Position numbers and translations under genes: made by a program
Assembly (NCBI GenBank): GCA_965230995.1
Contig: OZ246398.1
Span: 400,213 to 464,212 of the forward strand
DNA: 64,000 bases
Source of the DNA: an uncultured Candidatus Saccharibacteria bacterium
GTDB lineage: Bacteria > Patescibacteriota > Minisyncoccia > Phycocordibacterales > G965230995
Reading direction: 5' to 3'
The notes under the pieces: generated by a model
The model's database searches: none
The model's input: the letters and a program-made list of their open reading frames with translations, nothing else
What the model was told of the DNA's origin: nothing
Part shown: positions 2,401-18,816 of the stretch, piece after piece
Layout: every line of letters starts with the position of its first letter
Numbering within the stretch: position 1 is the stretch's first letter

Positions 2401-5400
2401 ATGCCCTCTGATACTGTTTTAGGAGACCTCTGTTTTGCAAAGCTTGTTCGATGTTGTCTTGCTGTTCTTGATCACGCCAAAACTTTTCTTTTTCAATGTC
2501 GACCGATTTTGCTTTTGCACCAATGAGTCCGTACAAAAACTTAACCGCACCAGATGTCTTATCATCGGTCAGTTTTCCAGCTGTAGTGTAAAATCTCCCC
2601 AACGCAGTATTTAAGAAATGGAGTTTGTAAGCATTGGCAACATAACTGGTCGATCCGTCTTTGTTTTTCTTTTCTGTTACTTCAAGCCAATCACGGAGTC
2701 CTGGAACTTTACTCATGAACGGATAGACATTGTTATTCGCTTCTATCGATTCACCGGTGAAGAGGTTTTGTCCGGTTCCGGCTTCTATTGGATATTTAAG
2801 GAGTGGAGACAATTCGCCAATAAAGCTGGCCAGAGTTCTTTGTGGGCTTCCTTTATATAGTCTGTTCACATCCTCAACCGGCAACCCTAAGCCATAGAGG
2901 TATTGTGAGAATCCGCCTTTTTCGCCAAGTCTGATCGGCAAACCCTCTCTCATATATGGAGGTAAGATTGGAAATTCCTCTTTTGCTTTTTCTTTATCTG
3001 ATTGCAACCCTTGAACGGCTTTCCCGATTCCAGCATATTTGCCCGGCTGTTTTACCATTTGTTCAAGTTGAAGTGGAATATTGCCCCGAGTCCATTTGTA
3101 GAATGGCAATAAACGCTTCATGATATTCTGTTCGAATGGTGCTAACGATTCCGGTGCATAGTCGAAGTGGAATTGGAACACGGCTTTGGCCGCCTGTTCG
3201 GGTGCATCGCCCTTGATTAAGCGGTCAACAAATAAAGGCAAACGGAGTCTGTTTTCCACGATCTCCATAGCTTTTTTGGGAGTATCCATCAGTTTTGCCA
3301 CTGGACCTTTTCCAATATCTTTTTCGACTTCTTTCATCACATCCAAATAACCGGGCTGTCCCACGACTCCGAGTCTGTTGGCAATATCTCGTATTTGACC
3401 GTAAGTGTATTTAGTCCCAAGTTGCGTGGTTATTGCACCCTCGGCTCCTCTGGCAATTTGATCAGCTTGCAAGTATCGAGTCGGGCTTTTTACTCCAGCA
3501 ATCCAGTTATTGAAAATTCCACCAATTGAGTTTCTTGTATGGAAAGCTGGAAACCATCCAGTGACTGAACCTTTCCAAAAATTCAAAACCTTATCATAAA
3601 GACCGAGAAACTTTTTCGTTGCTTCCTCGTTGGTTAGAACTTTATAAGTGTCATCAACATGCTTTACAATCTGTTCAGGCAAAAGCGTTCCTTTGAGTTG
3701 TGGCACTGAACTTTCAATATATTTGATTCCGTTTTCGTAGATTGGCTTTGTGATCTCTTTGGTTACCATTTTTCCTGTTACTGGATTTTTGATTTCTTTG
3801 GTCATCACTTCAGCTGGTCGGCCAAATTCCTTTCCGACATTGGTTAAGAAATCATAAGTATTCACAGCTTTGATGTGTTCTGCTTTTCGAGCCGCGAAAG
3901 CTTTAAATGCATCACTTTCAAACATCTGACTGACACCGTGTTGCTTTTGGAAGTATTTATTGATTCCGCCAATCGTATCGTTTAACTCTCTTTCTTTTGC
4001 AAAGGGTGTTTTTATTCGCAACGGTTTATTTAATTCACCGGTGATGTTCGCACTTCCTTTTTGCAAGAAATCACGACCCTCTGGTGTTAGGTAGTGGCGG
4101 AGATAATCCGGCAAAGTGTAGTCGAGGAGACCTCGTTCTTTTTCTTTGGTGGCAAATGTTTTGTGTTGGCCTCTTATGTAGTCAGTGATCTCGTTTATAA
4201 CTTTATTACCGGCTTGTGCAGTATCATCGTTTACTTTCATCATTCCATTCCAATATGGTTTCGGGACTTTTACAGCCGTTCCGGAATATAAGCGACTCTG
4301 ATCTTTTCTACCGGTATATAGCATCGCATCCAGTAATTCATCGCCTTGGCTTTCAGGCATGATGAAGTATTGGACTTTTCCTTTTTTGATTACGATCGGA
4401 CTTGGAAGACCTCCAGCATTTTTGAATTTCATCGAGCCGTCTTTAACTTTCACGAAAACATCAACATCATTTGGTTTTAGTTTTCCCTCCACAGAAGATC
4501 CAAACACTTTCATGTCTACGATGTTGTTTCGGTCGACTCCTTTGATATCGCCAAGATCCACGCCTTTGACCATATCTTTGATTGGTTCAAGAGCTCTCGG
4601 TAGTGGCATTTGAGGTTTAGGCACATTCTCAAGTATTTTTCCTACTTCAATTCCAGCTTTATCTCCCAGTTCTTTCTTGGCTGTTTTTCCGAGAGCCGAC
4701 ACTTCCTCAACCGCTTTGCCAACCTCTGATCTTGTTGCCTTGCTGAAGGCGGAGAATTTATCGACATACTGTTGACCAATTCCACCCGGCATGTCTTTAA
4801 TTGATTTGAATGGCACAAATGCTTTACCAGCCAAATCTTTTGCGCCTTGATATAATTTTCCGACCACTGGAGTTTTCTCTACCAGCGTATCTGCGACTTT
4901 GAATGGTGCCGTTACTACACTGCGAGGCAAGATTTGTTTACCCATGAATTTCAATCCATCTTTGGCCAAAAACTTTTCACCGCCTTCCTCGAGTACTTTT
5001 GTGGCAACGGCTTTTCGTCCGGCCTCCTCGCCAAGCTCTAAAATTGATTTTTTAAGCAGACTACTCCCAGCTTTACTCAATGCTACTTCACCAGCTTTAG
5101 TCGCCAGCTTGGCTTCCGCCCCATACCCGAATGTTATGTAAGTGGTTGGATCAAGTAAGACATCGGCGATAAAACCACCGACTGGGTTTTTAATGCCAAG
5201 AGCTTCAGATGGCAAGGTGTGTTCTTGAATTCCTTTCACAATTCCTTTTCCGCTTATAACTCCTCCCACGGCATAGGCACCGGTGTTTAAGACATGAAGA
5301 ATTTTTTGCAGAGTTGATTCTTGAGGTTGGGCATCAGAAACATCAACATTGTTTTTTAAGGCGTAATCTTTAAGTCCGGCCACCGTAGTGATGTTTGGTT

Positions 5401-5572
5401 TGGCAGAAGTTCCGGCAGAAGTGTCCGTCTCAATTTTTGTGTATCCGCCTTGAGCATTTTTACCGTACTTAACATTCCCAGCAGAAGCTGGAACAGAAGT
5501 TTTCACTGTTGCGGTTGGCACCGTGTCAGTGACTATGTATTTTCCGGTTTTTGGGTCTTTAAGATATGCCAT
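2387..5572 (-). CDS. Large virion/ejection protein (1061 aa) with an embedded minimal nucleotidyltransferase (Pol-beta-fold) motif
   Basis: Lies between the tail genes and the lysis cassette. The motif FGSSVEGKLKPNDVDVFV fits the hG[GS]-x(9-13)-DhD NTase signature. Confidence 0.5.
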   Translation of the reverse strand: MAYLKDPKTGKYIVTDTVPTATVKTSVPASAGNVKYGKNAQGGYTKIETDTSAGTSAKPNITTVAGLKDYALKNNVDVSDAQPQESTLQKILHVLNTGAYAVGGVISGKGIVKGIQEHTLPSEALGIKNPVGGFIADVLLDPTTYITFGYGAEAKLATKAGEVALSKAGSSLLKKSILELGEEAGRKAVATKVLEEGGEKFLAKDGLKFMGKQILPRSVVTAPFKVADTLVEKTPVVGKLYQGAKDLAGKAFVPFKSIKDMPGGIGQQYVDKFSAFSKATRSEVGKAVEEVSALGKTAKKELGDKAGIEVGKILENVPKPQMPLPRALEPIKDMVKGVDLGDIKGVDRNNIVDMKVFGSSVEGKLKPNDVDVFVKVKDGSMKFKNAGGLPSPIVIKKGKVQYFIMPESQGDELLDAMLYTGRKDQSRLYSGTAVKVPKPYWNGMMKVNDDTAQAGNKVINEITDYIRGQHKTFATKEKERGLLDYTLPDYLRHYLTPEGRDFLQKGSANITGELNKPLRIKTPFAKERELNDTIGGINKYFQKQHGVSQMFESDAFKAFAARKAEHIKAVNTYDFLTNVGKEFGRPAEVMTKEIKNPVTGKMVTKEITKPIYENGIKYIESSVPQLKGTLLPEQIVKHVDDTYKVLTNEEATKKFLGLYDKVLNFWKGSVTGWFPAFHTRNSIGGIFNNWIAGVKSPTRYLQADQIARGAEGAITTQLGTKYTYGQIRDIANRLGVVGQPGYLDVMKEVEKDIGKGPVAKLMDTPKKAMEIVENRLRLPLFVDRLIKGDAPEQAAKAVFQFHFDYAPESLAPFEQNIMKRLLPFYKWTRGNIPLQLEQMVKQPGKYAGIGKAVQGLQSDKEKAKEEFPILPPYMREGLPIRLGEKGGFSQYLYGLGLPVEDVNRLYKGSPQRTLASFIGELSPLLKYPIEAGTGQNLFTGESIEANNNVYPFMSKVPGLRDWLEVTEKKNKDGSTSYVANAYKLHFLNTALGRFYTTAGKLTDDKTSGAVKFLYGLIGAKAKSVDIEKEKFWRDQEQQDNIEQALQNRGLLKQYQRAYVPK

Positions 5573-5577
5573 AAGTT

Positions 5578-6906
5578 TTAATTTCCGCTACCGAAAAGAC
5601 CCTTGAAGAATCCTTTCGTTCCACCCCACACACTCTTTGCTACTCCCGGTATCTGTTTAGTGAAGACATCTTGTAAGCCAGCCCCGAATTGTTGTGCTGT
5701 TATCGGAGGAGTGTTGTCTATAATTGCTGGTGTACTATTTGCTGTCGCTGATTCCGCTTCGGCTTTTATTTGATCTCTTTTTGTGATCACTTGTCCTCGG
5801 ATACTTTGAGGCACATTACTTATTGAGAAGTTTGGATTATTTAAGAGTTCCAATGCGTAAGCTTCGACATCATTACCGTCGGTTCCTGATCCGCTTCCTG
5901 TTTTTCCTTTGAGCCCGACTACTTTATTTCCTCCCACATCAAGCACGGTTCCGGCTGGAGTATCATTGGCCAGCTGGGCAAGTTTTAAGGCACGGTCAAT
6001 AACATCTTGAGCATCTTTCTTTTCTTGTTCTTTTCCGTATTTTGCAGAGTCAATTAAATTAGCAACATCTTTTTCTGATGCACCGTATACCTGACTTAGA
6101 ATGTCACCGAGCACACTGTACTGATCTTTTTGGAATCCGAGAGTTTTCTCTGCAACAGTTAAAGGCAAGGTTGAGTCCTCATACTGCATTCCGGCCATTT
6201 CTTTTGCGGAGGCATCAGCCGTTCCCATTTCAGTCGCAAGTTTATTTCTTTCATTCAATAATTTTCTATATTCATCTATCAGTGGTTGTTTTTCGGAAGC
6301 TACAAGTCTTTGCGTTTGGCTCTCGGTTACCAAACCATTACTTGCAACAGTTCTGTCTCTGATATCTTTCTCTGAGCTGTTGATTGCTTCCTCCATTGTG
6401 GCCAATCGATCATCCAAACTTTTCAGATTTGTTTGCATCGTATCAATACCTCTCTTAGTTCTTTCTTGTTGATAGATGTCAGATTTTTTCGGCAAATTTT
6501 TGAGGGTATCGAGATAGGAAGTCTGGCTGTCTTGCATGCTTTTTAAGGTGGAATCAAGACCTAGTTCGGACCGGTATTGTTTAAGCAAAGATGTGTTAGA
6601 AGGCACTTCCGTCCCATAAAGGGTGCTTTTAGCTGACACAGAGCTTGTCCCCGGGCTCGAATTTTGGGCAACGGGCGGTGTTACGGTCGAAGAAGGTGTC
6701 ACGGTGGGACTTGGGTTCGGAACGCTTGCCTTAGGGGCAACAACGGGTGAAGTTGGTGATCCGGGCAAATTCAAGGTAGAGCCTGCGTATATCAGGTTGG
6801 CATTCTTGATGGTCGGGTTGGCTTTCATGATCGCATCAACAGTGGTGCCTTGCTGTTTGGCGATTCCCGATAATGTTTGACCTTTTTGTATGGTAATTTG
6901 AGCCAT
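5578..6906 (-). CDS. LysM-domain phage protein with a Pro/Ser/Thr linker and a coiled-coil region. Possibly a tail/ejection protein that binds peptidoglycan.
   Basis: N-terminal LysM: TIQKGQTLSGIAKQQGTTVDAIMKANPTI...NLIYAGSTLNLP. A low-complexity PSPT linker follows. Confidence 0.6.
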   Translation of the reverse strand: MAQITIQKGQTLSGIAKQQGTTVDAIMKANPTIKNANLIYAGSTLNLPGSPTSPVVAPKASVPNPSPTVTPSSTVTPPVAQNSSPGTSSVSAKSTLYGTEVPSNTSLLKQYRSELGLDSTLKSMQDSQTSYLDTLKNLPKKSDIYQQERTKRGIDTMQTNLKSLDDRLATMEEAINSSEKDIRDRTVASNGLVTESQTQRLVASEKQPLIDEYRKLLNERNKLATEMGTADASAKEMAGMQYEDSTLPLTVAEKTLGFQKDQYSVLGDILSQVYGASEKDVANLIDSAKYGKEQEKKDAQDVIDRALKLAQLANDTPAGTVLDVGGNKVVGLKGKTGSGSGTDGNDVEAYALELLNNPNFSISNVPQSIRGQVITKRDQIKAEAESATANSTPAIIDNTPPITAQQFGAGLQDVFTKQIPGVAKSVWGGTKGFFKGLFGSGN

Positions 6907-6912
6907 ATGATT

Positions 6913-7116
6913 TTAAGTTAGCGTTACATACCTCCACACTCCGTTAAAAAATATATAAAACCGTCTTGTACCGCCGTTGTCGTATAAAGCGAAACTGATC
7001 GGGGTTCTCGGTGTGTCGGACGGCGGTGAGTTCAATATCGGAATATCACGGAGAAGATTGAGTATCGAACCCAGATTCGGATCAAATGGTTGATCTTGGT
7101 TTGGTGCGTTGTTCAT
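6913..7116 (-). CDS. Hypothetical small phage protein
   Basis: ORF of 67 aa sitting in the operon context only. Confidence 0.25.
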   Translation of the reverse strand: MNNAPNQDQPFDPNLGSILNLLRDIPILNSPPSDTPRTPISFALYDNGGTRRFYIFFNGVWRYVTLT

Positions 7117-7310
7117 GTTTGTGGAAGTTTCTTATACTCGGCCAAGACCTCATTAATTTGGTCGAGTTGTTTTTGCATTGCAGTGATCTGTTGTTCCAGT
7201 TCGGCTTTTTGTTTTTCTAAAGCCGGAATGTTCACTGTCGAGACATCCTCACGAATGTCTGTCTTTTTTACATTCTCTTGGTCTATTTTTTCCAATGTGA
7301 ATTTTGTCAT
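7113..7310 (-). CDS. Hypothetical coiled-coil phage protein
   Basis: 65 aa with heptad-like, charged, helical sequence. Its stop and start overlap the neighbouring genes. Confidence 0.35.
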   Translation of the reverse strand: MTKFTLEKIDQENVKKTDIREDVSTVNIPALEKQKAELEQQITAMQKQLDQINEVLAEYKKLPQT

Positions 7311-7314
7311 ATGT

Positions 7315-9006
7315 TTATTTGATTATTCTGTCCGGAACGAATACGGCCGACACATCTTTTAACCCCATATCCCACTCACCGGAATATCCGGAGTTACTCC
7401 AGACTTCGACTTTGAATTGAATTTTTTTCGACCTCGCATTGAACCGAAGCATTTTATTTACTTTGCCTTGATTCTCGTTTCCCTTAATCGTTCCAAGTCT
7501 TTTGAAAGGTGTTATCGCCACATAATCTCCGGCTTGCAGATATCCCTGTGAAGTTCCGACATAGTACAAAGTCTCATCCAAATAAATTGTTTTTGTAGCA
7601 TTGTCCATGCTTTTTATGTGCCTGATCTGTCCAGCCGCCGGACCGGCAAGAACAATCACTTCGTCACCGACCTCATACGAACTACCAAAATAAGAAACGG
7701 TAAAGTAATCCGACCCTCCACCGGTCACATATTTTGCTTGATCTCTTATATTTTGTTCGGTGATGTTGTACTTGATTTCAAATCTTGCAAAACTGCTATT
7801 AGGCATCGGTTTGAAAAAGTTCAGGATCATTTGTTTCCATCTTTTGCGAAGATATGGATCGTTATCTATTAGTGGACTAATCCAGTACGCCCCGAATTCG
7901 TAAGGTCTGAATGTTCCAGTATCGTGGTTCACATCGATAATCGACTTATTGCCATCGCTGTACATCACACGGATTGTGTTGTTGTCGACATAGAGTCCGT
8001 ACATTACCGCTAGTCCCGGAGTCACATGGTTAACCGCACCGGTTGATACTCGGTGTTTGAAATAGAGAGCATTGGTTGATGGGTTATAGCACCAAATTCC
8101 GCAATACTGATTTCGACGACTCACATCGTAAGTGTTCGATCCTTTGGCAATTAGAATTGTGCCTTGATAAACTTTCATGCAACCGGCTTTCAGTGAGATG
8201 TAGTCCTCGTGGTTCATTTCCGGGAACTTGTTAAGCTTCTCAATTCCTGAACCGTTAAAGCGACAGATCCAGCCGTCTCGTGTTAAGAAATACAAAACAT
8301 TTTTATCAACAGCACCGGCAAGACTTTGTGTTTGGGTTAATTGCAGGACACGGTTATAAGTTTGCGAATATCCATCCCAGAAAAACAAAGCTGATCCGAA
8401 TGTCGGATGGTGAGCAGAAATAACAAGATAGTCGGTGAGCGGTGCGAGCCACATAATCACATAACCGGTCGGTAGTGTGAGCTTGTTGGGATTCCAAGAG
8501 CTTGCCCCTGTATCCCATGTAGCCAAATAGTTTTTATTTCCGAAACAAATGAATTTCAAGAACTTAGTAATCGGAACATCGTCAAACGCTGTGTTCACAT
8601 TGAACGACTGCCAGTTGTCCACCCAAGTATTTTTATCAAAGCGACCGACCCAAGTACTTCCGGCATAGTACATATAATCGTCATCGGCATATAATCCGCT
8701 TCCTCCCCAGATGTTTGTGCTGTCGTGTACTTCAGTCCAGCTGTTGTAGGTATTCTCAAAAATCTTTCCGTCATCATGATTGACGCAGTAATATCGATAA
8801 TTGAAATAACACATGTAAGTCGGCTGATTCAGTGTTGGAACGCTCACACTGTCGCTCTCTTTGAAAAACTTATTTGCCACTTTCAAATATGGAGGATACT
8901 GATCAAATTCCAATCCGTTCGAAAACCAAAAAGTTCCCTCGGCATTAAGGTTTGAAATACCTTTGTGGAATTGAGATGTTTTCCAAATCTTTTTTGGTAG
9001 TGACAT
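7315..9006 (-). CDS. Phage tail/baseplate-associated protein (hypothetical, 563 aa)
   Basis: Long Trp/Tyr-rich ORF within the tail gene block. No motif recognised. Confidence 0.45.
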   Translation of the reverse strand: MSLPKKIWKTSQFHKGISNLNAEGTFWFSNGLEFDQYPPYLKVANKFFKESDSVSVPTLNQPTYMCYFNYRYYCVNHDDGKIFENTYNSWTEVHDSTNIWGGSGLYADDDYMYYAGSTWVGRFDKNTWVDNWQSFNVNTAFDDVPITKFLKFICFGNKNYLATWDTGASSWNPNKLTLPTGYVIMWLAPLTDYLVISAHHPTFGSALFFWDGYSQTYNRVLQLTQTQSLAGAVDKNVLYFLTRDGWICRFNGSGIEKLNKFPEMNHEDYISLKAGCMKVYQGTILIAKGSNTYDVSRRNQYCGIWCYNPSTNALYFKHRVSTGAVNHVTPGLAVMYGLYVDNNTIRVMYSDGNKSIIDVNHDTGTFRPYEFGAYWISPLIDNDPYLRKRWKQMILNFFKPMPNSSFARFEIKYNITEQNIRDQAKYVTGGGSDYFTVSYFGSSYEVGDEVIVLAGPAAGQIRHIKSMDNATKTIYLDETLYYVGTSQGYLQAGDYVAITPFKRLGTIKGNENQGKVNKMLRFNARSKKIQFKVEVWSNSGYSGEWDMGLKDVSAVFVPDRIIK

Positions 9007-9015
9007 AGTGTTTGT

Positions 9016-9648
9016 TTATACGAGACTGCTTCTTGGAATCTCGGCTTGATCCGAAGCCGTAGACATTCTGGCTAATTCTTGATCTCGCCATTTTCCAATC
9101 ATTATTCTCTCGAAGTTATTTTCTGCCTGTCGTTCAAGCTCGGTGTCGCCCTGTTGGTTGTAGTACATTTTCTTGCCCCACTCGACATAAGCTTGGTGAT
9201 AGAGTTTTTCGACCTCCGGTTCGTCATTGTCAGATGCAAAGTCGTCTGATATTCGGACAAAGACAAACCTCATGGCACTACCGTCGACTGTTGGTGTCGC
9301 TACTGGGTAAAAATAACCGCCCAGCATATACACTGCATGGTCATCAAACTTGTCTCTGTCTCGGAAGTCGATCAGCTTAAAAGGTGTTTTATCAGTTCCG
9401 ATTCTTAGTTCGATAAACGCACGATAGTTTTCCGGTACGGGATATTTCTCTTGGTTAGCAACAGTTGTGAACGGCTGTTCGGTCTTGAGATAATCCCAAT
9501 AGTCAAAAGTCTGATCTCGATCATCTGATGGACGCCAGCTCTGCACTTTTTCATCGGCTCTTTGAACCCATGTGTTAAGTAGTGTTGAGTCAACGGTCTG
9601 ATCATCGACTTCGTTTTTTATTGCTGTTTTAATATCGCCTCTGGTCAT
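9016..9648 (-). CDS. Hypothetical phage structural protein (210 aa)
   Basis: Operon context only. Tightly packed with its neighbours. Confidence 0.4.
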   Translation of the reverse strand: MTRGDIKTAIKNEVDDQTVDSTLLNTWVQRADEKVQSWRPSDDRDQTFDYWDYLKTEQPFTTVANQEKYPVPENYRAFIELRIGTDKTPFKLIDFRDRDKFDDHAVYMLGGYFYPVATPTVDGSAMRFVFVRISDDFASDNDEPEVEKLYHQAYVEWGKKMYYNQQGDTELERQAENNFERIMIGKWRDQELARMSTASDQAEIPRSSLV

Positions 9649-9652
9649 AGTT

Positions 9653-9967
9653 TTAGATGTCAGCTCTTATTGTGATTCCGATTTGTTTATAGCCGGTCTG
9701 AATCTTTCCGTCAGGAAAAGTGACCTCGACCTCTCCCACATAAGTTCCGGCTGTGTTTGTGTCCGATGAAGTCCAGAGATATTTGCATTTACCTTTGGTG
9801 GCATCGGTTATCACGCAAGTGCTACCGCTAATTTTTACTGATCCGCTGGTGGCATCTTTCATGTAGAATTTGACCGTGCATCCAGTTAAATCTACAGGTG
9901 AACCATCTTGAGTCAGATTGAATTCCAACGGTGGCCTTGTATCGTCTTGAACAATTTTTACGCTCAT
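9653..9967 (-). CDS. Small beta-rich phage protein, possibly a fibre distal/receptor-binding or Ig-like domain protein
   Basis: 104 aa. Start overlaps the stop of the repeat fibre gene by 4 bp (9964-9967). Thr/Ser/Gly-rich. Confidence 0.4.
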   Translation of the reverse strand: MSVKIVQDDTRPPLEFNLTQDGSPVDLTGCTVKFYMKDATSGSVKISGSTCVITDATKGKCKYLWTSSDTNTAGTYVGEVEVTFPDGKIQTGYKQIGITIRADI

Positions 9968-11433
9968 AGTTTTATATCTTTATTACCTTTGCCAAGACCG
10001 ACTTCCAATTTTGCTGATTGTAGTGATTGATCTTGTTTGGCATTTTTGACCTCGATGTTTGTCCTAGCGTTAACCAATCCAAGTGACTCTCTGGCATTAA
10101 GCATCAGGACCGAAAGTTTTGCGGAAAGAAATTCAACCGCTATTTTTATACCCTCAATTATTTTCCAAATCCTGAAGCGATAAGTCCAAACTTTTGCGAT
10201 CAAACCTCGGATGTCGAATAGGTATGTCCATTGCTTTCCAGCGGTAATCAGGATGTCTAATTTGTAAGTCCACCATTTTGCGATCTTGCTTAGGATGTCC
10301 AAGATGTATGTTTCAGTTTTGGCAATCAAATTTCTAATATCCAGCACATAGGTTTCGATCTTTGTGGCAAGATTCCGGATGTCTAATTTATAAGATTCCA
10401 GCTTGGCAATAAGAACTCGAATATCCAACACATACCGCATCGCCTTGGCCGTTAAACTCCTGATATTTAAGAGATAGATTGTCTGTCTCAAAACAGTGAT
10501 CAACGAATCAAATAAATATCGGGTGTTTTTGGCAATAAGGTTTTTAATGTCGAGCAAATAACTTTCTGTTTTGCCGGCAATATTTCTTATGTCCAAGATG
10601 TAAGTCCAAGCTTTGGGTATAAGGCTTCTGATGTCGATCAAATATCTCTCGATCTTGGTGGCCAAATTTCTGATATCAAGTTTATATGTTTCTGTTTGTG
10701 TGATTGTATTCCTGATATCTGTCACATAGGCCATTAACTTTTGAGCTATGTTTCTTATGTCCCATTTGTATATCGACTGTTTGAGAACCGTAAGAAAAGA
10801 ATCAAACTTGTAGGTTATTGTTCGTCCGAGAGTGATCAGAGTGTCGAATCGGTATGCAATGCTTTTTGCAGTGATATTTCTGACATCGAGTTTATAAACT
10901 AACCCCAGCCAAGCACCGCCGATTATGTCGAACAAGTATGATGCGGTTTTATTCACCTTTAGACGAATATCTAAAACATAAGTCTCAAGTTTTGTGGCAA
11001 GATTTCTGATATCCAGTTTATAAGTGAGCAGTTTTGCAATAAGTCCGAATACATCGAGGAGATATCTTTCCGTTTTAGCAACGATGATTCTGATGTCGAA
11101 TTTGTATGTCAGACTTTTTGTGACTATTTGGAATATATCCAAAACATAAGATTCCATCTTGGCAATCAGACTCCTAACATCAAACCTGTAAGCAATCGTC
11201 TTGTTTGAAAGTCCGAAAGTATCGAGAATGTAGGTTTCTATTTTTGCTATCAGGTTCTTAATGTCGAGGATATATGTTTTGGCGTGCGAAATCGTGACGA
11301 AACTATCAAGCAAATATGTAATCTGTTTGTTTATCAATCCGAATACATCCAGCACATAACTCACGGCTTTAGCAATTGGCTTTGAGCCAGTGTTATTTAA
11401 TTGGGCTGTGTTGAATTGATAAGCGTTGAACAT
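9964..11433 (-). CDS. Tail fibre shaft protein built from about 28 tandem 14-residue repeats (Y-x-[LF]-D-[IV]-[RF]-x-[LI]-[IA]-x-K-x-x-[TS])
   Basis: Near-perfect 42-bp periodicity across about 1.2 kb of coding sequence. Sits directly beside the beta-helix tailspike gene. Confidence 0.6.
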   Translation of the reverse strand: MFNAYQFNTAQLNNTGSKPIAKAVSYVLDVFGLINKQITYLLDSFVTISHAKTYILDIKNLIAKIETYILDTFGLSNKTIAYRFDVRSLIAKMESYVLDIFQIVTKSLTYKFDIRIIVAKTERYLLDVFGLIAKLLTYKLDIRNLATKLETYVLDIRLKVNKTASYLFDIIGGAWLGLVYKLDVRNITAKSIAYRFDTLITLGRTITYKFDSFLTVLKQSIYKWDIRNIAQKLMAYVTDIRNTITQTETYKLDIRNLATKIERYLIDIRSLIPKAWTYILDIRNIAGKTESYLLDIKNLIAKNTRYLFDSLITVLRQTIYLLNIRSLTAKAMRYVLDIRVLIAKLESYKLDIRNLATKIETYVLDIRNLIAKTETYILDILSKIAKWWTYKLDILITAGKQWTYLFDIRGLIAKVWTYRFRIWKIIEGIKIAVEFLSAKLSVLMLNARESLGLVNARTNIEVKNAKQDQSLQSAKLEVGLGKGNKDIKL

Positions 11434-11437
11434 AGTT

Positions 11438-12991
11438 TTATCCGGAAGCCGGTATGTTAGTACCTCTCACTGAGTTCGTGCCTTGCATGCTTATTTGTGC
11501 GGTCACCGCATCTTTGCAAACATTGCCAATCGCTAAGTTGTAGTCATCGCTCGCACTTTGCTCTCTGATGTGATAAGCGGATTTGTTTGTTTGCGTGGCA
11601 TGTAAGTTGTTTGATGAGATCACATTGTAGGTTGAATACACTGAGCCATTGTTTGAGAGATAGATGCTGTTCGAAGTGTTGTTAGTAGTTCGCGAAGCAT
11701 TATCTATGGCATTTCCAGTTATGGTGTTGTAGGACGATCCATAAAGATATATCCCATGTCCACCGGCCCCGAAGATATGGTTTCCGCTTATAACATTGCT
11801 TACGGTCGTTCCCGAACCGTAATAAAGAGCAATGCCTTGGCTGGTTGGGTATGTGATTGTATTTCCAGTGATCACATTGTATTTGGTGGCGTTGGAACTA
11901 TTACCGACCACAATACTCCAGCTGTCGCCATAGAAGTGATTGCCAGTTACCGTTACTCTTTGAGCACCAACAAGATAAACTCCGTAGTTTGTGCTGGTGA
12001 AGACCATATTGCCTGTGAACACTTCTCGCCAGCCACTGTTCACATAAAAACCGTAGCCATTATTGCGAATGACATTGCCGGTGATTGTGTTGTAGTTGCA
12101 AGCGTTGTCGTATATTCCGTAGGAATTTGAAGCAAGCACATTGCCAACGATGCTGATGTATTGAGAGCTGGTGAATAATCCGATCGCTGTTCCGGTGTTC
12201 GAATAAATGTAGCAATTTTTTATCACGCTATCCTCAATGGCAATAACTTTCATGCAATCTTGTTTTGCACCAGTCAGCCACATGTTTTCTATCGTTAGCT
12301 TGCTGTGCTTGTACGATGCGGTTCCCCAGAGTACGAGCGGACTGTTGGCACCTGATGTTTGATTGGCTTGATTGCCGTCAATCATGAAGTCTCGAACAGT
12401 GATGTTTGTGTAGCTTACACTTCCGCCGTTTCCAATTCTCACCACATCGCCAAGATTGGCGGAATTGGCCACCCGCAAAATTGTTGATACTCCTTCACCC
12501 TCGAGAATCACATTACTTTTTAAGATTTCAACGACACCAGTCAGGTTATAAGTTCCTTTCTTGATTCTGACTATTCCGCCACCCGATGGTAGATTGCTTA
12601 TGGCTTCATTGATCTCTGTCTGATCGGCTGTGCCGTCGCAGTTGTAGTCACCAGAACCGTCGGTTGCGACAATAACTTCGGTTCTTGTTTGAAAGTCGTC
12701 AAAAAGTTTGGCTGTCACCAAAAGTTCAAGGCGTGTGCCTTGAGGCCATTGTTGGGCAGTGGTGTTTTCTTTGGCTCGTTCGATTGTGAATTGATCGGTT
12801 ACGATCGTTGTTACTTTCACAATCTCTCCCACGCTAGGATCACTTGAGTAAAGCGTGGCGTGGAATGGTGCCGATGGAAACTTCGTCCCGTCACCGGTCT
12901 GCACATTGAGGATAGTCGCACCCGAAAGCAGTGGATTGTCCGTGATTGTGCTTTTGGCGTTATTCTTTTTTGTTAAGAAAGTTTTAGCCAT
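11438..12991 (-). CDS. Tailspike / depolymerase with a right-handed parallel beta-helix (pectate-lyase-like)
   Basis: Many PbH1-type repeats such as ...ITGNVIRNNGYGFYV..., ...VTGNHFYGDSWSIVVGN..., ...ITGNTITY... and ...ISGNHIFGAGGHGIYL... Confidence 0.7.
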   Translation of the reverse strand: MAKTFLTKKNNAKSTITDNPLLSGATILNVQTGDGTKFPSAPFHATLYSSDPSVGEIVKVTTIVTDQFTIERAKENTTAQQWPQGTRLELLVTAKLFDDFQTRTEVIVATDGSGDYNCDGTADQTEINEAISNLPSGGGIVRIKKGTYNLTGVVEILKSNVILEGEGVSTILRVANSANLGDVVRIGNGGSVSYTNITVRDFMIDGNQANQTSGANSPLVLWGTASYKHSKLTIENMWLTGAKQDCMKVIAIEDSVIKNCYIYSNTGTAIGLFTSSQYISIVGNVLASNSYGIYDNACNYNTITGNVIRNNGYGFYVNSGWREVFTGNMVFTSTNYGVYLVGAQRVTVTGNHFYGDSWSIVVGNSSNATKYNVITGNTITYPTSQGIALYYGSGTTVSNVISGNHIFGAGGHGIYLYGSSYNTITGNAIDNASRTTNNTSNSIYLSNNGSVYSTYNVISSNNLHATQTNKSAYHIREQSASDDYNLAIGNVCKDAVTAQISMQGTNSVRGTNIPASG

Positions 12992-13007
12992 AACTTTTTA
13001 ATTTCTT

Positions 13008-13787
13008 TTAGGCCGCAGTGTCACCCTCGGATTTCACTTGGGTTGTCGTAGCGGTTACTGCACCGGCACCGGCTGGCCATGTAATGCGATACCACAGTCC
13101 GAAGTTTCCGGCAGGTGCGACATCACCGGACTTCAATCCGGTTGCCTTGCTGGCCATATCGCCACCCTCGGCGTTAACTAATGAGCCACCGGAGTATTTC
13201 TTTCCAAACCATAGGAAGCAAATCTTTTTATTTGTTCCAATAGTTCCTCTTGCTGTGCCTCCCGAACCTTGTTTGATGGTCACGGTTCTTGAGGCAGATA
13301 GAGAGTTGGCATAAACCGCATACACTTTGGAAAATGTAAGCGATCCGACTACTTCGGTCGCACCGTTTAAGGTTAAGGTCTCGGTCTGTCTGTTTCCTGA
13401 TGCATCCTCACCAACAACGGTTAATTGTCTGGTGTCTGCACCGTCAGAAACTACGGCAACAACCGCATTCGCCCCGAACGCCGTCATGTTTCCTTGGCCA
13501 CCGTCGGCATCATCGGCATGATCCAATCCGAATCCGAATGACAATGCAGAGTTGGTTGGTTGGCTTAATAGCCATGAGACTATGTTTTGCCAAGTAAGCG
13601 TTGCGTGGGTGTTCTTTCTGAATATCTTTCGATACTCAGTACCACCGGCAGTCGCTTCGTCACCAGTTATGTCGGTGAACAGGTTGTTATCGGTATTGTC
13701 GACTACTTCAGTCGCCGAAATTCCAGCACCGTCAGAATTGGTTGCTGATGATTTATATTCTTTTAAGTCTGCTGATACGATTGGCAT
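13008..13787 (-). CDS. Hypothetical Gly/Ala/Thr-rich structural protein
   Basis: Positioned between the capsid and tail genes. No motif recognised. Confidence 0.4.
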   Translation of the reverse strand: MPIVSADLKEYKSSATNSDGAGISATEVVDNTDNNLFTDITGDEATAGGTEYRKIFRKNTHATLTWQNIVSWLLSQPTNSALSFGFGLDHADDADGGQGNMTAFGANAVVAVVSDGADTRQLTVVGEDASGNRQTETLTLNGATEVVGSLTFSKVYAVYANSLSASRTVTIKQGSGGTARGTIGTNKKICFLWFGKKYSGGSLVNAEGGDMASKATGLKSGDVAPAGNFGLWYRITWPAGAGAVTATTTQVKSEGDTAA

Positions 13788-13819
13788 AAGTTTGTTTTAG
13801 ATTATCGACCTCTTACGGT

Positions 13820-14176
13820 TTACTTGTCAGTCAAAAGCTCGACCAGTCTTTCTTTTGTTTCAGTGCCGTCGACCTCAACACCTTTTTCTTTTGCCAGAGA
13901 TTGAAGCTCTTTTTTGGTTAGCTTCACAAAGTCTTTGTCGACCGTTGTGTCCTCGACAGGACTGGATTCATCAGACACACGCCAAAAATCTATTTTGAAT
14001 GTGTCTAAGCCCTCAAGTTTTTTGATGAGTTCCTCATCTTTGGTCTCAAATTGACCATCTTCGAATGTAGCGTACACTCCCGGCTGATCGCCGATTTTCA
14101 ATCCGCCCTCAAATATCGGCGTAGCCGGTTTAAGGACGATCTTGAGTCTTTTGATATGGGAATTAAATTTAGCCAT
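13820..14176 (-). CDS. Hypothetical head-associated protein with a C-terminal SAP/Rho-N-like helix-extended-helix motif
   Basis: C-terminus reads LTKKELQSLAKEKGVEVDGTETKERLVELL. Sits next to the MCP gene. Confidence 0.35.
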   Translation of the reverse strand: MAKFNSHIKRLKIVLKPATPIFEGGLKIGDQPGVYATFEDGQFETKDEELIKKLEGLDTFKIDFWRVSDESSPVEDTTVDKDFVKLTKKELQSLAKEKGVEVDGTETKERLVELLTDK

Positions 14177-14280
14177 ATAGTTTTATTAATTAAGTTTTTA
14201 ATTTTTAATCTGGCATCCGCCCTTACTCCTGGCTTCCACAGAGTGGAGGCCAGCGAGTCAGAGCAGAGCCTTGGTCAGGT

Positions 14281-15504
14281 TTAGGCAACACCCTTAAGCA
14301 AAGCGTTCTTTTCGAAGTTGACTCTCTGCAAACCGACTTCGGTTTTGTACTGGTCGACTTCCTCGTCAGCATCGTTGTCTTGAATGTTGGTTTCGAGCGT
14401 GGTGTCTCGACCATTCAAAGGACAATGCTTCAAGGTTGAAAGATCCAATACGACTCCCATACCGGCATACTGATTGTCGAACATCGGATGACGGACAATG
14501 TTCAAGGTACCGAATGAAGACTGGAATTTACGGATTTCTACACCGTAGGTCTTATCGGTTGGAACGACATACATCTTGCTCGTGGCAAAGCCTTCCAAAT
14601 AACCGAGCACGGTATTGCCACAGAAGAAGTACTTCTCGCTTGAACCATACTTAAAGGCATAGTTCTGCAAAAACGATCGGAATTCGGCTTCGGTTAAGCT
14701 CGAGCTTGATTCGTCTTGCACATTTCCAGCAGAGATGATGGATTCCAAGATACCTCCGGTTAAACGGAGAGGTTTACCGTCGGGACCGGTGACTTCTTTC
14801 TTTTCACCGAACCAATATGCGCGTTCGATTTTCTTGGCTTGTTCGATACCATGTTTTGCACGCAGGTATTTCAAGTCCGCACCCGGCGTACCGGACGGAT
14901 AGAGTTTCGAAGCGTTCTCGGTTTGAGTGACACCGAATTTTGTTTTGAAGATTTGGGTATAGTTGGTGACCTTCACGAGTTTAGTCGTGTTGGAATCTCC
15001 AGACTTTGATCCTTCCTCAAAAGCAGGACCGATAACCAACAGCCAGTCGTCATCATTGATGGCGGCCGCCGCAGTGGCACCGGCTCCACGAGTTACGGTG
15101 AGAGTATTCGTGGAATAATTAACATTGGTGACTCTCATGATTTCACCGGTACGAGTGTTTTTAATCAGATCGTACTTGGAGAAAATTGAGGCACCCGGAC
15201 TATCGACAACAATGTCGGTCGCACCTACGAGGTAGCCACCGCCGTTGTTAATTCGAGCCCAGACACCAGAGTACTGATCCTCATATTCAGTAAACTCTGG
15301 GTTATAGACGACTCTTTTTTGAAGAGCCATTCCTTTGAACTTGCCTCCACCGTCACCAATCTTTCCGATTTGGGTCAAGAAAGCAGTGAGCGGTGATTCG
15401 CCTGGTTCAAGAAGGAATATTTTGTCATCGACATCGGGAATACGCTGTGATTGTTCAATCGTCAGCGTGTTTCTCGTTCCGATGAGATGGGTTGGTTCAG
15501 ACAT
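14281..15504 (-). CDS. Major capsid protein (probably HK97-fold)
   Basis: 407 aa. Follows the scaffold-like gene and sits downstream of portal and terminase. The size and position are typical for an MCP. Confidence 0.55.
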   Translation of the reverse strand: MSEPTHLIGTRNTLTIEQSQRIPDVDDKIFLLEPGESPLTAFLTQIGKIGDGGGKFKGMALQKRVVYNPEFTEYEDQYSGVWARINNGGGYLVGATDIVVDSPGASIFSKYDLIKNTRTGEIMRVTNVNYSTNTLTVTRGAGATAAAAINDDDWLLVIGPAFEEGSKSGDSNTTKLVKVTNYTQIFKTKFGVTQTENASKLYPSGTPGADLKYLRAKHGIEQAKKIERAYWFGEKKEVTGPDGKPLRLTGGILESIISAGNVQDESSSSLTEAEFRSFLQNYAFKYGSSEKYFFCGNTVLGYLEGFATSKMYVVPTDKTYGVEIRKFQSSFGTLNIVRHPMFDNQYAGMGVVLDLSTLKHCPLNGRDTTLETNIQDNDADEEVDQYKTEVGLQRVNFEKNALLKGVA

Positions 15505-15563
15505 AATTTTGTTTTATGTTAGAAAGCCGGTAACCGCTCACGAGACCTCAAATCTAATAAGCA

Positions 15564-16475
15564 TTACCTGACTTTGTTTGGGTTGATACTTTCGCCCACA
15601 AGATCGTCAAAGGGATTGTCTTTGGGCGTTTGGCCTTTGGCAGTTGGTGAACCGCCTCCGACACCTGATGCATTTTCACGCTCAAGATTTTTCACTTCCT
15701 CTTTTTTCAAAGCTTCCTCGGTTGCTTTCTTGGCTTGGGCATCCTTGGTGATGGAGTCGTAGGCCAGTTGAAGCGTGCGAGCATTGAACGGTAGTTTTTC
15801 TTTTTCGATGATGTCGAGAACTTTGTGTCCCACCTCTGGGTCTTTGAAGTCCTCGTGACCCTCGATCCACTTATCAATTTCCGCTTTGGTTTTTGCTTTC
15901 GTTTCTCTTTCCTCAAGCTTTTTATCGAGGATAGCTTCTATGTCGGGCGTATCCTCCGGCTCCGATTCGCCGGACTTCATGGTCTCGGCAAGCACCGCTT
16001 TTAGCTGTTCAGCTAATTGCGGATTCTTGACCAATGCTCGATCCAGCACGGAGAGAAACTGTTCATTTTTCTCGTGCAGGGTTTTTAAGTCATTGATCTC
16101 TTTTCCTTGCTCGATGATCTTGGTCTGGGCTTCGTCATACGAGCGTTTAGCATCATCTTCGCTCTTAAACTTTCCCCAGAAGGATTTGTCGCCCTCGGGC
16201 TTTTTGCCGTCGGGACTTTCGCCCTTATCGCTGGGCGTATCGCCAGATTGATCCTTGGGTTGTTCACCCTTAGCGTCTGGTTTTTTGTCAGGTTGCTCTC
16301 CGCTCGGAGTGCCTGACGGAACTGAATTGACCGGTTGTTCCTTTCCGACCGCATCGTCAAAAGACGGAGTCTCTGGCTTTGCGTTTGGATCGGCGCCGGA
16401 ATTGTTTGGTTTTTCCATAGGCGTATTAATTGGCGGATTGTTCTTTTCCAGTCTGACCTCACGAAAGACTTTCAA
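15564..16475 (-). CDS. Scaffolding protein (charged, helical)
   Basis: Low-complexity, Lys/Glu-rich, coiled-coil sequence lying between the portal and MCP genes. Confidence 0.5.
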   Translation of the reverse strand: MKVFREVRLEKNNPPINTPMEKPNNSGADPNAKPETPSFDDAVGKEQPVNSVPSGTPSGEQPDKKPDAKGEQPKDQSGDTPSDKGESPDGKKPEGDKSFWGKFKSEDDAKRSYDEAQTKIIEQGKEINDLKTLHEKNEQFLSVLDRALVKNPQLAEQLKAVLAETMKSGESEPEDTPDIEAILDKKLEERETKAKTKAEIDKWIEGHEDFKDPEVGHKVLDIIEKEKLPFNARTLQLAYDSITKDAQAKKATEEALKKEEVKNLERENASGVGGGSPTAKGQTPKDNPFDDLVGESINPNKVR

Positions 16476-16622
16476 AGCGTCCGTCTGTTAATAAAACCGA
16501 GCCCCTTTGTGGAGGCTCGGTTGGCTTCTCAAGATGTGGAAATCGCCAGAAATCCCATCTCAAGAGGCCAGCTGAACCTCTCAAAATTTTGGCGATTTCC
16601 TTAAATTGTTTTTATCAGGTTT

Positions 16623-16862
16623 TCATACTTTTGGTTTTATAAATTCGTCATGGATTGCTTTTATTCTGAGCAACACGACTCCCAGTCCTTCGGCTCGACC
16701 TTGATAGTGCCGAATGTCATCGGTAGTCAGACCTTTGTTTAATAACCAAGTCTTGGTTATTTCCAATTCATCGGCAATCAAGTCGGACAATGCTTCAAAA
16801 TACTTTGTCTCGTACAAGTTGCTGATGGTTTCCTCGGTTTGTTTGTTTATTTTTTCACTCAT
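16623..16862 (-). CDS. Hypothetical small phage protein
   Basis: 79 aa ORF between portal and scaffold. Confidence 0.3.
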   Translation of the reverse strand: MSEKINKQTEETISNLYETKYFEALSDLIADELEITKTWLLNKGLTTDDIRHYQGRAEGLGVVLLRIKAIHDEFIKPKV

Positions 16863-16866
16863 AGTT

Positions 16867-18816
16867 TTATTGCTTTATTGCGTTTCCTAACATCGCACCC
16901 ATTTCGTTTCCGGGAAGTGACGGTGCTGGAGGTTCGTTTGGATCAATGGCAGGTGCTTCACCTGTAGGGATTGCCGAACCTTGGTCTGTCGGCACAACCG
17001 GTGGTTGTTTTTGTTCAGTGATGTAATTTGTCGGCTCCCAGCCATAATCCTCAAAAAGCTTCATCAGTATTTTGAATTTCTTGATTGAATACACGGTTCC
17101 GGTTTCCGCATCAGTTAATTCGTTCACATCCTTGATCAAACCCCAGAGTTCCAAATCTTTGGCTTTCTTAAGTTCGGAAGATGTGGCCAGTGAGGATGTT
17201 GATTCGAGGGACATCTCGTACTCATCATCGAATAATCCGTTTACGCTTTCATCGGCTTCGGTTATAAGTCCGTGTCTGGTCAAGATTGCTATGGCCTTAT
17301 CGGGCATTACGGACTTCTTTGTCCAAAATTGTTTTATCATGCTGATCCAGTGGTCGAAGTGCATGATGTAAGAATTGCGAAGCATGATCAGGAATAATTT
17401 TACGCCCTCGAGTGTTGCTTCTCGCATGAATGAGGCAACGGTCGCAGTCTCTTTTCTGTCTACACCGGCCGTGGTGGTGAATTCGTCTATACCGACTGCA
17501 ATTCTCATCGCTTCCTTGATGTGGTCTGGTTCTACAAAAGCCGAAGAGTTCACATCACCGAATTTAAGTTCTTTGACTGAGTTCGGGTCGTTAGTCCATA
17601 AGATTCCAAGTGGTTTGACTGTTATGGTTGATTGCTTGTATCCGGGCAGAGCCACCGGTGCGGCCGCAATCATGCTGTGAATTTTCATTGTCACCGCATC
17701 GACTCGTTGGTTGGTTACGGAGTTGAGAAGTTCTTGCAAATGGTCGACAAGCTTCGGAATACCAAGCCAGTAAAATGAGAATGGTCTTGGGAAGAAGCCT
17801 GTTCGGGAATAAGGTTTCTGTTCGTGATCATACGGGTTGTCACCGTCCTTGATTTCTATTGGTGTACCGTCCATTGGCAGGAACACGGTGAACCTCTCGT
17901 CAATCCAGCGTTCAACGACTTCGAATAACTTCTCGCTGGTGATTGGCATTTGGATCGGATTGTTTGGATTGCCCTCAATCGGACTCGATGCTTTTGTTGT
18001 TTCTCTCAAACTCTTTCTAAGTTGGATCAATACTTCTTTTCTCACATAGGCATAGTCGGTGATGTCACCACCGGACTTTGCCACTTCGCCGTCTGTGTTT
18101 AGGAATTGTTTCCACACGCTCTCGTTTACATCCGGATATTGGGACTTCATTTCATCCAGTGTCAGCACATAACGGTGGAATACTGGGAATGGATCGGCAA
18201 TCTTTTTCATTCTCGGATGTGGGTAGAAGTTATAAATATCTACCGGATCAAAATCTGGTCGGAATACAATCTTGGATGTTGATGTTTTAAATATCAGCTT
18301 CTTGATCTTGTCGATTATACCAATTTCTTTCTGTCTCTTTTTCTTAGTTTCTTTTCTGAGGAAGTCTTTTCCGATTGTAGTTCCACAGATAAATACTTGC
18401 AGGAAGAAGTCGATTAAGTCATCACTCATTCCAATCTCCCATAACCACAGCACAAGGTCTTTTAATGCCTCATTGTTTTTACCCTCAAGCTTGAAGTCTG
18501 GTGTTATACCGACTGTCTTTTGTAAAAAGGTTTTGATGTATGAAAAAACTTGAGGAATAAAAACATTTGATTGCCAGACTTCGCCGTCAATTGTCTTTTC
18601 TAATTGTTCGGCACGATCACCGTTGAAAGAGGAGAACAGCTTATAGCCCCGATCAAATTCGGGTTTGTAGTAGTACAGGAAGTTTTTCTTGGCTTCATCG
18701 TACTCACTGTTGAATTTTTGTAGTTCTTTTGTATTTGCCATATTTAATAAAGTTTTATTGTTCGACCTTTGTGTGCAATTGGCATTTCGCTTGGCAATTC
18801 TTTCAATCCTTGCCAT
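16867..18816 (-). CDS. Portal protein
   Basis: 649 aa, immediately downstream of TerL (the two overlap). A position-based call. Confidence 0.55.
   Translation of the reverse strand: MARIERIAKRNANCTQRSNNKTLLNMANTKELQKFNSEYDEAKKNFLYYYKPEFDRGYKLFSSFNGDRAEQLEKTIDGEVWQSNVFIPQVFSYIKTFLQKTVGITPDFKLEGKNNEALKDLVLWLWEIGMSDDLIDFFLQVFICGTTIGKDFLRKETKKKRQKEIGIIDKIKKLIFKTSTSKIVFRPDFDPVDIYNFYPHPRMKKIADPFPVFHRYVLTLDEMKSQYPDVNESVWKQFLNTDGEVAKSGGDITDYAYVRKEVLIQLRKSLRETTKASSPIEGNPNNPIQMPITSEKLFEVVERWIDERFTVFLPMDGTPIEIKDGDNPYDHEQKPYSRTGFFPRPFSFYWLGIPKLVDHLQELLNSVTNQRVDAVTMKIHSMIAAAPVALPGYKQSTITVKPLGILWTNDPNSVKELKFGDVNSSAFVEPDHIKEAMRIAVGIDEFTTTAGVDRKETATVASFMREATLEGVKLFLIMLRNSYIMHFDHWISMIKQFWTKKSVMPDKAIAILTRHGLITEADESVNGLFDDEYEMSLESTSSLATSSELKKAKDLELWGLIKDVNELTDAETGTVYSIKKFKILMKLFEDYGWEPTNYITEQKQPPVVPTDQGSAIPTGEAPAIDPNEPPAPSLPGNEMGAMLGNAIKQ

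Follow-up and report, generated by a model that had tools for sequence, protein, structure and literature searches.

The window analysed here, a 64,000-nucleotide (nt) stretch of contig OZ246398.1 (positions 400,213 to 464,212), carries a prophage, and among the structural genes of this prophage lies an open reading frame (ORF) on the minus strand, specifying a protein of 489 amino acids (aa), that probably encodes the shaft of a virion fibre, attached to the neck or the tail of a short-tailed particle with SU10-type capsid and adaptor. An earlier interpretation made from the letters of the window only (hereafter the sequence-only reading) had described a tail-fibre gene at 9964-11433 with about 28 tandem repeats of 14 aa. 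The ORF was confirmed exactly, and the array was found to consist of 28 units in register plus a degenerate 29th (coordinates in Table 1); its assignment to a virion fibre-type repeat protein, encoded among phage structural genes, is also supported.

The 14-residue periodicity of the 489-aa protein is far above chance: at a lag of 14 residues the identity reaches 0.384, and 2000 shuffles gave no more than 0.149 at any lag; for DNA, the identity of 0.451 at a lag of 42 nt compares with at most 0.333 in codon shuffles. The 28 consecutive units, with no insertion or deletion between them, share the consensus Y-x-[LF]-D-[IV]-[RF]-x-[LI]-[IAV]-x-K-x-x-[TS], in which Y1 is found in all 28 units, D4 in 27 and K11 in 23, positions 3, 5, 8 and 9 are hydrophobic, and N, G or S stands at position 7 in 19 of the 28. 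For the 25-aa N-terminus in front of the array, which was also found in the fragment P0013, we infer a role in attachment. From residue 437 on, the C-terminal tail shows to the eye a 9-aa motif repeated 5-6 times, [STN]-A-[KR]-x-x-[LIV]-x-[LVM]-x. These tail repeats (residues 437-489, 9967..10125, minus strand) read SAKLSVLML / NARESLGLV / NARTNIEVK / NAKQDQSLQ / SAKLEVGLG / KGNKDIKL, and the 9-residue periodicity, spotted by inspection, is common to all orthologues.

The structural module runs on the minus strand over about 570..22588. In the order of transcription it comprises the genes for a small-terminase-like helix-turn-helix protein, a 548-aa protein, an SU10-type portal-like protein, the SU10-type major capsid protein, proteins of 118 and 259 aa, the 517-aa beta-helix protein, the repeat protein, the 104-aa BppU_N-like protein, the SU10-type adaptor, a 563-aa protein, two small ORF products, a LysM protein, a 1061-aa protein and an amidase. 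The stop of the beta-helix gene lies 4 nt before the ATG of the repeat gene, and the start of the BppU_N-like gene overlaps the repeat-gene stop by 4 nt (ATGA). Residues 9-123 of the 517-aa protein match residues 7-119 of the 'putative tail fiber protein' of PDB entry 8jov (E 4e-7), an entry holding 18 chains, and its N-terminus also matches tail-fibre N-termini of PHROGs, so that this neighbour is likely to be the canonical tail spike. Because the 517-aa neighbour, and not the repeat protein, holds the tail-fibre anchor, the label 'tail fibre' was probably mis-assigned in detail. A tail fibre of T7 gp17 type was considered for the repeat protein and rejected, since such a fibre needs an N-terminal adaptor or nozzle-binding domain of about 110-150 aa, while the repeat protein has 25 aa and the domain sits in the 517-aa neighbour. 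The 104-aa protein, because of its likeness to the lactococcal neck passage structure (NPS) and BppU proteins (PMC6669499), would be a collar component or a fibre anchor.

In the fibre that we propose, each 14-residue unit would form short beta strands with a turn around positions 6-7, and about 28 such units would be stacked into a long, regular and probably trimeric rod. Conservation and covariation suggest that Y1, [LF]3, [IV]5 and position 9 form the core of this rod and that the invariant D4 and K11, together with the R6-E13 pair, make salt bridges that recur along it. The conserved 25-aa N-terminus and the C-proximal block, units 25-30, may be docking ends for partner proteins. The faster-evolving central units may act as a spacer, so that the number of units (29, 25 or 20), which does vary, would set the length of the fibre. 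The most likely site is the neck or adaptor region, beside six beta-helix tail spikes, where the co-translated 104-aa BppU_N-like protein is a possible anchor. Depending on the rise per unit, the rod could measure between about 14 nm, if it is a solenoid, and about 38 nm, if it is a spiral, and a difference of about 2-6 nm would result from the allelic insertions and deletions (indels). Repetitive beta shafts are a known way of building viral fibres, and the general kind is thus familiar.

A wider family of 14-residue repeats

A word-indexed homologue search, with the single protein or with the profile of an alignment of 18 rows (A1), scored no relative, and, as this method is blind to the repeat, an exhaustive HMMER search was needed. 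The scan of 1.84 billion representatives gave 168 matches at E<=1e-3, including 48 at E<=1e-10, so that the family is counted as at least 168 clusters at 50% identity. The strongest self-periodicity was 14 or 28 in 142 of the 148 relatives long enough to be tested. The family signature is T-phi-x-aromatic-[DN]-[IV]-x-x-x-[VIL]-x-K-x-x (phi, hydrophobic), with sub-types such as THKYNI, TLKFDI, FQWDI and FLYDI, and occasional units of 17-18 residues carry an insertion after position 7. In the usual architecture, about 5-48 units and a short tail come after a non-repetitive N-terminus of 200-2000 aa, which is sometimes LamG/ConA-like; the window protein, with almost no N-terminal part, is unusual in this respect. 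All but one of the clusters are singletons, and 'hypothetical protein' is the sole name in the source records; the window protein itself was absent from the collection in a cluster look-up. No Pfam, NCBIfam or PHROG model covers the repeat: for the window protein Pfam gave sub-threshold spurious matches only, NCBIfam none and PHROGs one at E 0.002, and the family members behaved alike. As neither such a model nor a solved structure exists, annotation pipelines call the members of this family hypothetical.

Among cultured phages, neither tblastn nor megablast found a match to the query and its region. With the family member P0006 as the tblastn query, about 19 units were found as the C-terminal part, about 270 aa, of a 1396-aa protein encoded downstream of the tape measure in the Aeromonas phages phiA034 and BUCT551 (Casjensviridae, Sharonstreetvirus). 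The middle part of the phiA034 protein matches solved gpJ-type tail-tip proteins, and the whole is a gpJ-like central tail fibre protein, in which the repeat has the same period of 14 residues and a related motif, x-P-Y-N-L-R-x-x-x-Q-x-E-L-x. In contrast to the free-standing protein of the podophage-type module in the window, the phiA034 array is fused to a tail-hub/gpJ body of 1100 aa, belongs to a siphophage and is annotated as hypothetical; its repeat part has no covering structure. In siphophage metagenome contigs the family gene immediately precedes the tail-tube gene (L007 and L038), is found near it (L006, L035 and L039), or stands four genes upstream of the tape-measure gene (L040), and in all six contigs it comes after a block of small head or connector-region genes. 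A further contig has the family gene a short way ahead of an SU10-type portal gene.

The order of small connector genes, repeat protein, Phage_tube_2 tube gene and tape measure is common to L038/L039 (GCA_034680565.1), L007 and L006, and in several of the siphophage-contig repeat proteins the C-terminus is a highly basic stretch of about 45 aa (…RKRYEKQLKKWRETWKVDWKAEFEK…) that the window protein lacks. Two groups of matches were left out of the family, namely the 'minor head protein' of Bacillus SPO1-like phages, which has a heptad DxSxLKT repeat, and the 'tail sheath stabilizer' of Vibrio T4-like phages, with weak and irregular W-N/D-x-R motifs. A fused ancestor, in which the beta-helix neighbour would be homologous to the N-terminal domains of family members, was also rejected after phmmer found nothing.

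Fold of the unit and site of the proposed fibre

The repeat is favoured to be of beta type rather than a heptad coiled coil, because the AlphaFold2 (AF2) models contain no helix, covariation is of the i,i+2 type, beta-branched and aromatic residues are abundant, and position 7 is turn-prone. The preference of the sequence-only reading for a beta shaft over a heptad coiled coil is supported accordingly by the same observations. The full-length monomer modelled with the A1 alignment is all-beta (mean predicted local distance difference test, pLDDT, 55; predicted template modelling score, pTM, 0.59), and a 7-unit fragment modelled with a gapless in-phase alignment of 41 rows shows a strictly 14-periodic strand and turn pattern (pLDDT 43), in which the chain loops around positions 6-10 and a strand of nine residues extends from K11 to I5. 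I, V, T and Y make up 36% of the residues and the mean beta propensity exceeds that for alpha. In the within-protein covariation of 2194 units, i,i+2 pairs dominate and no i+3 or i+4 pairs were found; as the signal is dominated by local pairs and ancestry, it backs the beta character only. Among orthologues, R or K at position 6 goes together with E or D at position 13 (Fisher p=1.7e-9). This coupling holds within a unit and not with the preceding or the following one, and the units accordingly come in two flavours, a charged one (R6/E13) and a hydrophobic one (F or L at position 6 with an aliphatic residue at 13).

Several points weigh against a beta-type fibre shaft on the neck or tail. The two AF2 monomer models are of low confidence and differ in strand topology, and a Foldseek search of PDB with the full-length model gave only non-significant matches (E>=0.4, TM<=0.31). 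A 3.5-residue hydrophobicity harmonic is strong, being the strongest in the family profile and the second strongest in the query. The presence of the protein in the virion and its point of attachment are read from gene context, and as family members occur in several contexts (at a gpJ C-terminus, upstream of a tube gene, upstream of a portal gene), context alone cannot fix the location of the fibre. The labels of the orthologue records, on which the assignment of a host is based, are also inconsistent, and some of the orthologues lie on short, probably mis-binned contigs.

The alternative that survives best, possible but on balance doubtful, is a monomeric beta-solenoid (beta-roll), with one coil of 14 residues per unit, a rise of about 4.8 A and a total length of about 14 nm, and with no intertwined trimer. 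The non-significant Foldseek matches in PDB are all solenoids (HK620 tailspike, CsgA 8c50, pectate lyases, leucine-rich repeats), the strands of the 7-unit model are parallel and strictly periodic, and adjacent units show weak same-position couplings at the core positions 1, 3, 5, 10 and 12. Coils of 14 residues occur in known beta-rolls, such as the YadA head and the ryegrass antifreeze protein. The YadA head domain is indeed an all-beta rod formed by a 14-residue left-handed parallel beta-roll, but it belongs to a bacterial trimeric autotransporter adhesin, its NSVAIG-type motif is unrelated, and it was not matched in the PDB sequence searches. Against a solenoid, the models that suggest it disagree with each other at these low pLDDT values, the same-position couplings are equally strong at lags of 2 and 3 units and thus probably reflect ancestry, the R6-E13 coupling acts within and not across units, where a uniform coil predicts otherwise, and the fusion of the array to the trimeric gpJ implies three chains side by side.

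The probably trimeric shaft that we prefer may be compared with the beta-spirals of the adenovirus fibre and reovirus sigma1, the shafts of which have a pseudo-repeat of about 15 residues with alternating hydrophobics and a turn residue, and a length set by the number of repeats. The window protein may resemble these attachment-fibre shafts in its short repeat with alternating hydrophobics and a turn residue, and the specific spiral of adenovirus or reovirus type named in the sequence-only reading is one possible form of the shaft. In the window protein hydrophobics alternate at positions 1, 3 and 5 and N, G or S is common at position 7, but the units have 14 residues instead of 15-16, lack a conserved G or P, and carry a different signature, with invariant Y1, D4 and K11 and no matching PDB chain. 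The search of all PDB chains by phmmer and by profile, at E up to 10, gave no fibre match and no sequence family for the repeat, and a fold search against BFVD gave nothing informative.

As to the site of the fibre, one parallel is the NPS of lactococcal siphophages of the 936 and P335 groups. In 936-group phages the gene for this structure of collar and whiskers lies directly upstream of the tube gene, and immunogold electron microscopy places the protein between head and tail (PMC4759559); the protein was modelled as a BppU_N-like collar domain followed by a trimeric fibre and then by a carbohydrate-binding module or a beta-helix (PMC6669499). The family genes of L007 and L038 occupy this very slot upstream of the tube gene (PMC4759559), and in the window the genes for the BppU_N-like, fibre and beta-helix proteins adjoin one another beside the adaptor gene. 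This arrangement suggests, by analogy, a neck or adaptor fibre built from separate polypeptides. The NPS differs in being one polypeptide with a coiled-coil fibre, while the window has three separate genes and a beta-repeat fibre: the BppU_N domain is found not at the N-terminus of the same polypeptide but in the separate 104-aa gene, and none is on record in the family members examined.

Anchoring to the capsid is less likely than anchoring to the neck or adaptor, and we regard as unlikely a head fibre or capsid spike of the kind of phi29 gp8.5 or Pa223 gp52, in which a short N-terminal peptide on the capsid lattice would carry a rod of beta repeats for reversible adsorption. The gp52 spike of Pa223, a trimeric beta fibre, consists of an attachment peptide of 40 aa, a triple beta-helix and a knob (10.1101/2025.06.11.659172), and the window protein resembles it in combining a short conserved N-terminus with a long beta rod, and in evolving faster than its neighbours, as was reported for gp52, which is more variable than other structural proteins. 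Bruynoghevirus, the genus of Pa223, provides most of the cultured-phage matches to the window capsid, distantly related though they are (all at <=30% identity), the repeat gene lies between the capsid and adaptor genes, and the 517-aa protein already fills the tail-fibre slot. The differences are however substantial: gp52 has 295 aa, its triple beta-helix is non-repetitive and its knob TNF-like, neither sequence nor profile comparison linked the window protein to this or any other solved head fibre, and the Pa223 spike gene does not adjoin the capsid gene. The presence of the same repeat in the distal part of the phiA034 central tail fibre also argues against a head fibre, and the adjacent BppU_N-like protein points to an anchor in the tail or neck (PMC6669499).

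An alpha-helical coiled coil or helix-turn-helix supercoil, in which the 14 residues would represent two heptads, is very improbable. The 3.5-residue harmonic described above and the spacing of D4 and K11, exactly 7 residues apart, agree with such a fold, of which the phi29 head fibre, a helix-turn-helix supercoil, is an example. On the other hand, the strong hydrophobics alternate at positions 1, 3 and 5, the 6-13 coupling is limited to one unit, and the absence of helix from both AF2 models, the turn-prone position 7, the residue composition and the covariation pattern all speak against it.

Age of the array and its length alleles

The orthologues of the repeat protein are encoded on one IMG/VR, ten genome and fifteen metagenome contigs; 23 of them are full-length, the window protein makes 24, and conservation was calculated over 20 non-redundant orthologues. 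These 24 sequences fall into three length classes of 489 aa (six, including the window protein), 433 aa (17) and 363 aa (one), with 29, 25 and 20 units, respectively, and the alleles differ by indels of exactly 56, 70 and 56 residues, equal to 4, 5 and 4 whole units. The 433-aa alleles have a gap of 4 units (56 aa) at units 5-8, the placement of which is ambiguous by about one unit; the 363-aa allele (L032) is without 70 aa around units 5-8 and without another 56 aa near residues 234-289. Each class covers substantial sequence divergence. The proposal that repeat-number variation tunes the length of the fibre was thus borne out with respect to the number, which varies by whole units among relatives, while its effect on length is an extrapolation. 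As this natural series is found in syntenic prophages that are otherwise 82-100% identical, it is well suited for testing repeat number against fibre length.

Synteny is complete in the orthologue loci, with the same gene order in 25 related loci. The neighbouring proteins are 82-100% identical to those of the window, and the identity of the repeat protein falls to 47-63%. In comparisons with the orthologues, the ratio of nonsynonymous to synonymous substitution rates (dN/dS) is 0.08-0.16 for the repeat gene; for its neighbours, the gapless comparisons gave 0.01-0.08. The repeat ORF is therefore a real, constrained coding gene, and the purifying selection that acts on it is relaxed about two- to threefold relative to its neighbours. 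Mean column conservation is 0.85-0.96 for units 25-30 and 0.6-0.8 for the central units; the N-terminal value is given in Table 1, and AVEFLSAKLSVLML, the first 14 aa of the C-terminal tail, is the most conserved stretch of the protein (0.96). Within the units, Y1, D4 and K11 are nearly invariant across orthologues, and positions 2 and 10 are the most variable. In one of the relatives, L016 (CAYMVY010000001.1), the upstream genes (118, 259 and 517 aa) are 94-97% identical to those of the window, the repeat protein is about 50% identical and the genes downstream are 83-94% identical; this mosaicism suggests that recombination breakpoints flank the fibre gene.

The array is old and constrained, and whole-unit indels in it are rare. 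Single units are conserved even between alleles of no more than 55-60% identity: orthologous units share 7.8-12.1 of the 14 residues, against about 5.3 for arbitrary pairs of units, and landmark units (such as YxxDIIGGAxxGxx, or the W-W-T units 26-28) are found at the same place in every allele. Since the units match their own orthologues best and the dN/dS value is as low as given above, the array was not recently expanded, nor is it prone to slippage or an artefact of assembly.

The comparison of units at the DNA level leads to the same conclusion. The sequence-only reading had taken the repeats for near-perfect copies of 42 bp, but the mean pairwise identity of units is only 0.40 for protein and 0.47 for DNA, with 0.79 for the best DNA pair; third codon positions are 0.34 identical between units, identical residues share their codon in only 41% of cases, and no exact DNA repeat in the array is longer than 14 nt. 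The synonymous sites between units are thus randomised, at variance with the recent expansion or contraction proposed earlier, and the proposal of a recombination-prone DNA repeat does not hold for the present-day array with such short exact repeats. A DNA tandem repeat, in the sense of head-to-tail copies of about 70% identity or more, open to detection by Tandem Repeats Finder or to slippage, is not what the window contains: this program, which had been suggested as a check, gave no 42-nt array at a score of 50 or even 30. Collapse of the array during assembly, which had been named as a possible refutation, is unlikely, because the units are so diverged and the length of 489 aa is identical in five independent assemblies. 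The least tenable explanation is consequently a fast-changing DNA tandem repeat prone to recombination, of the contingency-locus type, or else an artefact of assembly, and it is refuted at the DNA level as far as rapid change is concerned: the natural alleles do differ by whole units, but the units are too diverged, there are only three length classes, each widely diverged, the units track their own orthologues, and independent assemblies agree in length. In general, strong protein periodicity should not be taken to imply the recent expansion of a DNA repeat.

The records of plausible hosts among the orthologue genomes are of the Parcubacteria group and of metagenome-assembled genomes of Candidatus Paceibacterota; other labels include contigs of 0.55-1.3 Mb named 'uncultured Gammaproteobacteria'. 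The prophage lineage thus apparently, and tentatively, belongs to Parcubacteria/Paceibacterota of the candidate phyla radiation (CPR), bacteria the phages and adsorption machinery of which are almost unknown. We offer as a conjecture, attractive but rather less probable than the fibre assignment itself, that the 14-residue unit (phi-x-phi-D-phi-x-x-x-phi-x-K-x-x-T) represents a fold without a solved representative, which forms the shaft of neck or collar whiskers and of central fibres in many uncultivated phages, and that the length alleles of the CPR (Parcubacteria) prophages (29, 25 and 20 units) tune the reach of the virion to the host surface.

The prophage and its other genes

Table 1. 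Positions in the window of the repeat gene, its parts and the other features discussed
Feature	Position	Strand	Basis or remark
Whole ORF, 14-residue-repeat fibre protein (probable)	9964..11433	-	489 aa + stop, ATG start; ORF list
N-terminal 25 aa MFNAYQFNTAQLNNTGSKPIAKAVS, candidate attachment peptide	11359..11433	-	mean column conservation 0.87
28 in-register 14-aa (42-nt) units, residues 26-417	10183..11358	-	periodicity, unit alignment
Units 5-8 (residues 82-137), absent from 433-aa alleles	11023..11190	-	unit-level and MAFFT alignments
Degenerate 29th unit YRFRIWKIIEGIKI	10141..10182	-	conservation 0.91 among orthologues
C-terminal 58 aa	9967..10140	-	opening 14 aa are AVEFLSAKLSVLML
Upstream neighbour, 517-aa right-handed beta-helix protein with tail-fibre N-terminal anchor	11438..12991	-	Pfam Beta_helix 2.9e-27 (Beta_helix/NosD)
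Downstream neighbour, 104-aa BppU_N-like immunoglobulin (Ig)/beta-sandwich protein	9653..9967	-	Pfam BppU_N 1.2e-12
SU10-type head-to-tail adaptor, 210 aa	9016..9648	-	Pfam SU10_adaptor 8.9e-17
SU10-type major capsid protein, 407 aa	14281..15504	-	Pfam SU10_MCP 4.4e-40
Large serine recombinase	37460..39166		adjoins tRNA-Ser and tRNA-Glu
tRNA-Ser	38980..39069	-	
tRNA-Glu	39234..39308	+	

To the right of the structural module lie a reverse transcriptase (RT) gene, genes for a Fic protein, a C5 methylase, an SMC-like ATPase and the serine recombinase, the tRNA genes, and then FtsZ and GyrA. The element is taken as an integrated prophage because the serine recombinase lies by the tRNAs and is followed by cellular genes; the window is accordingly split into prophage (1..39300) and host (39300..64000), the latter with FtsZ, GyrA and a solute-binding protein.

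The RT of 349 aa (25172..26221, plus strand) is group-II-intron-RT-like and Drt3a-like, with scores below the curated cut-offs; the prophage may carry it as a defence RT or as a retron-like element. Behind the RT gene comes a direct repeat of 54 nt (26413..26466 and 26483..26536, 83% identical), just upstream of the Fic-domain gene (26553..27623). The repeat gene was considered as the target of a diversity-generating retroelement and rejected, as no pair of template repeat and variable repeat was found near the RT within 1..27000, where this 54-nt pair and another of 47 nt, located at two gene junctions, are the only repeats outside the array.

The Rfam LOOT RNA motif (RF03000) was matched over its full length at 22954..23074 on the minus strand (76.5 bits, against a gathering score of 46.4), on the far side of the D12 methyltransferase gene and a short way outside the structural operon at its upstream end. 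The small ORFs between the gene of the 563-aa hub candidate and the LysM gene (6913..7310, minus strand) specify a coiled-coil-like product of 65 aa (7113..7310) and one of 67 aa (6913..7116), both candidates for tail needle or plug components. The 47-nt pair consists of 9954..10000, at the junction of the repeat-gene stop and the BppU_N-like start, and 16849..16895, at the junction of the portal stop and the start of the next gene; the two stretches are 79% identical, and may represent a common signal for translational coupling or a chance similarity.

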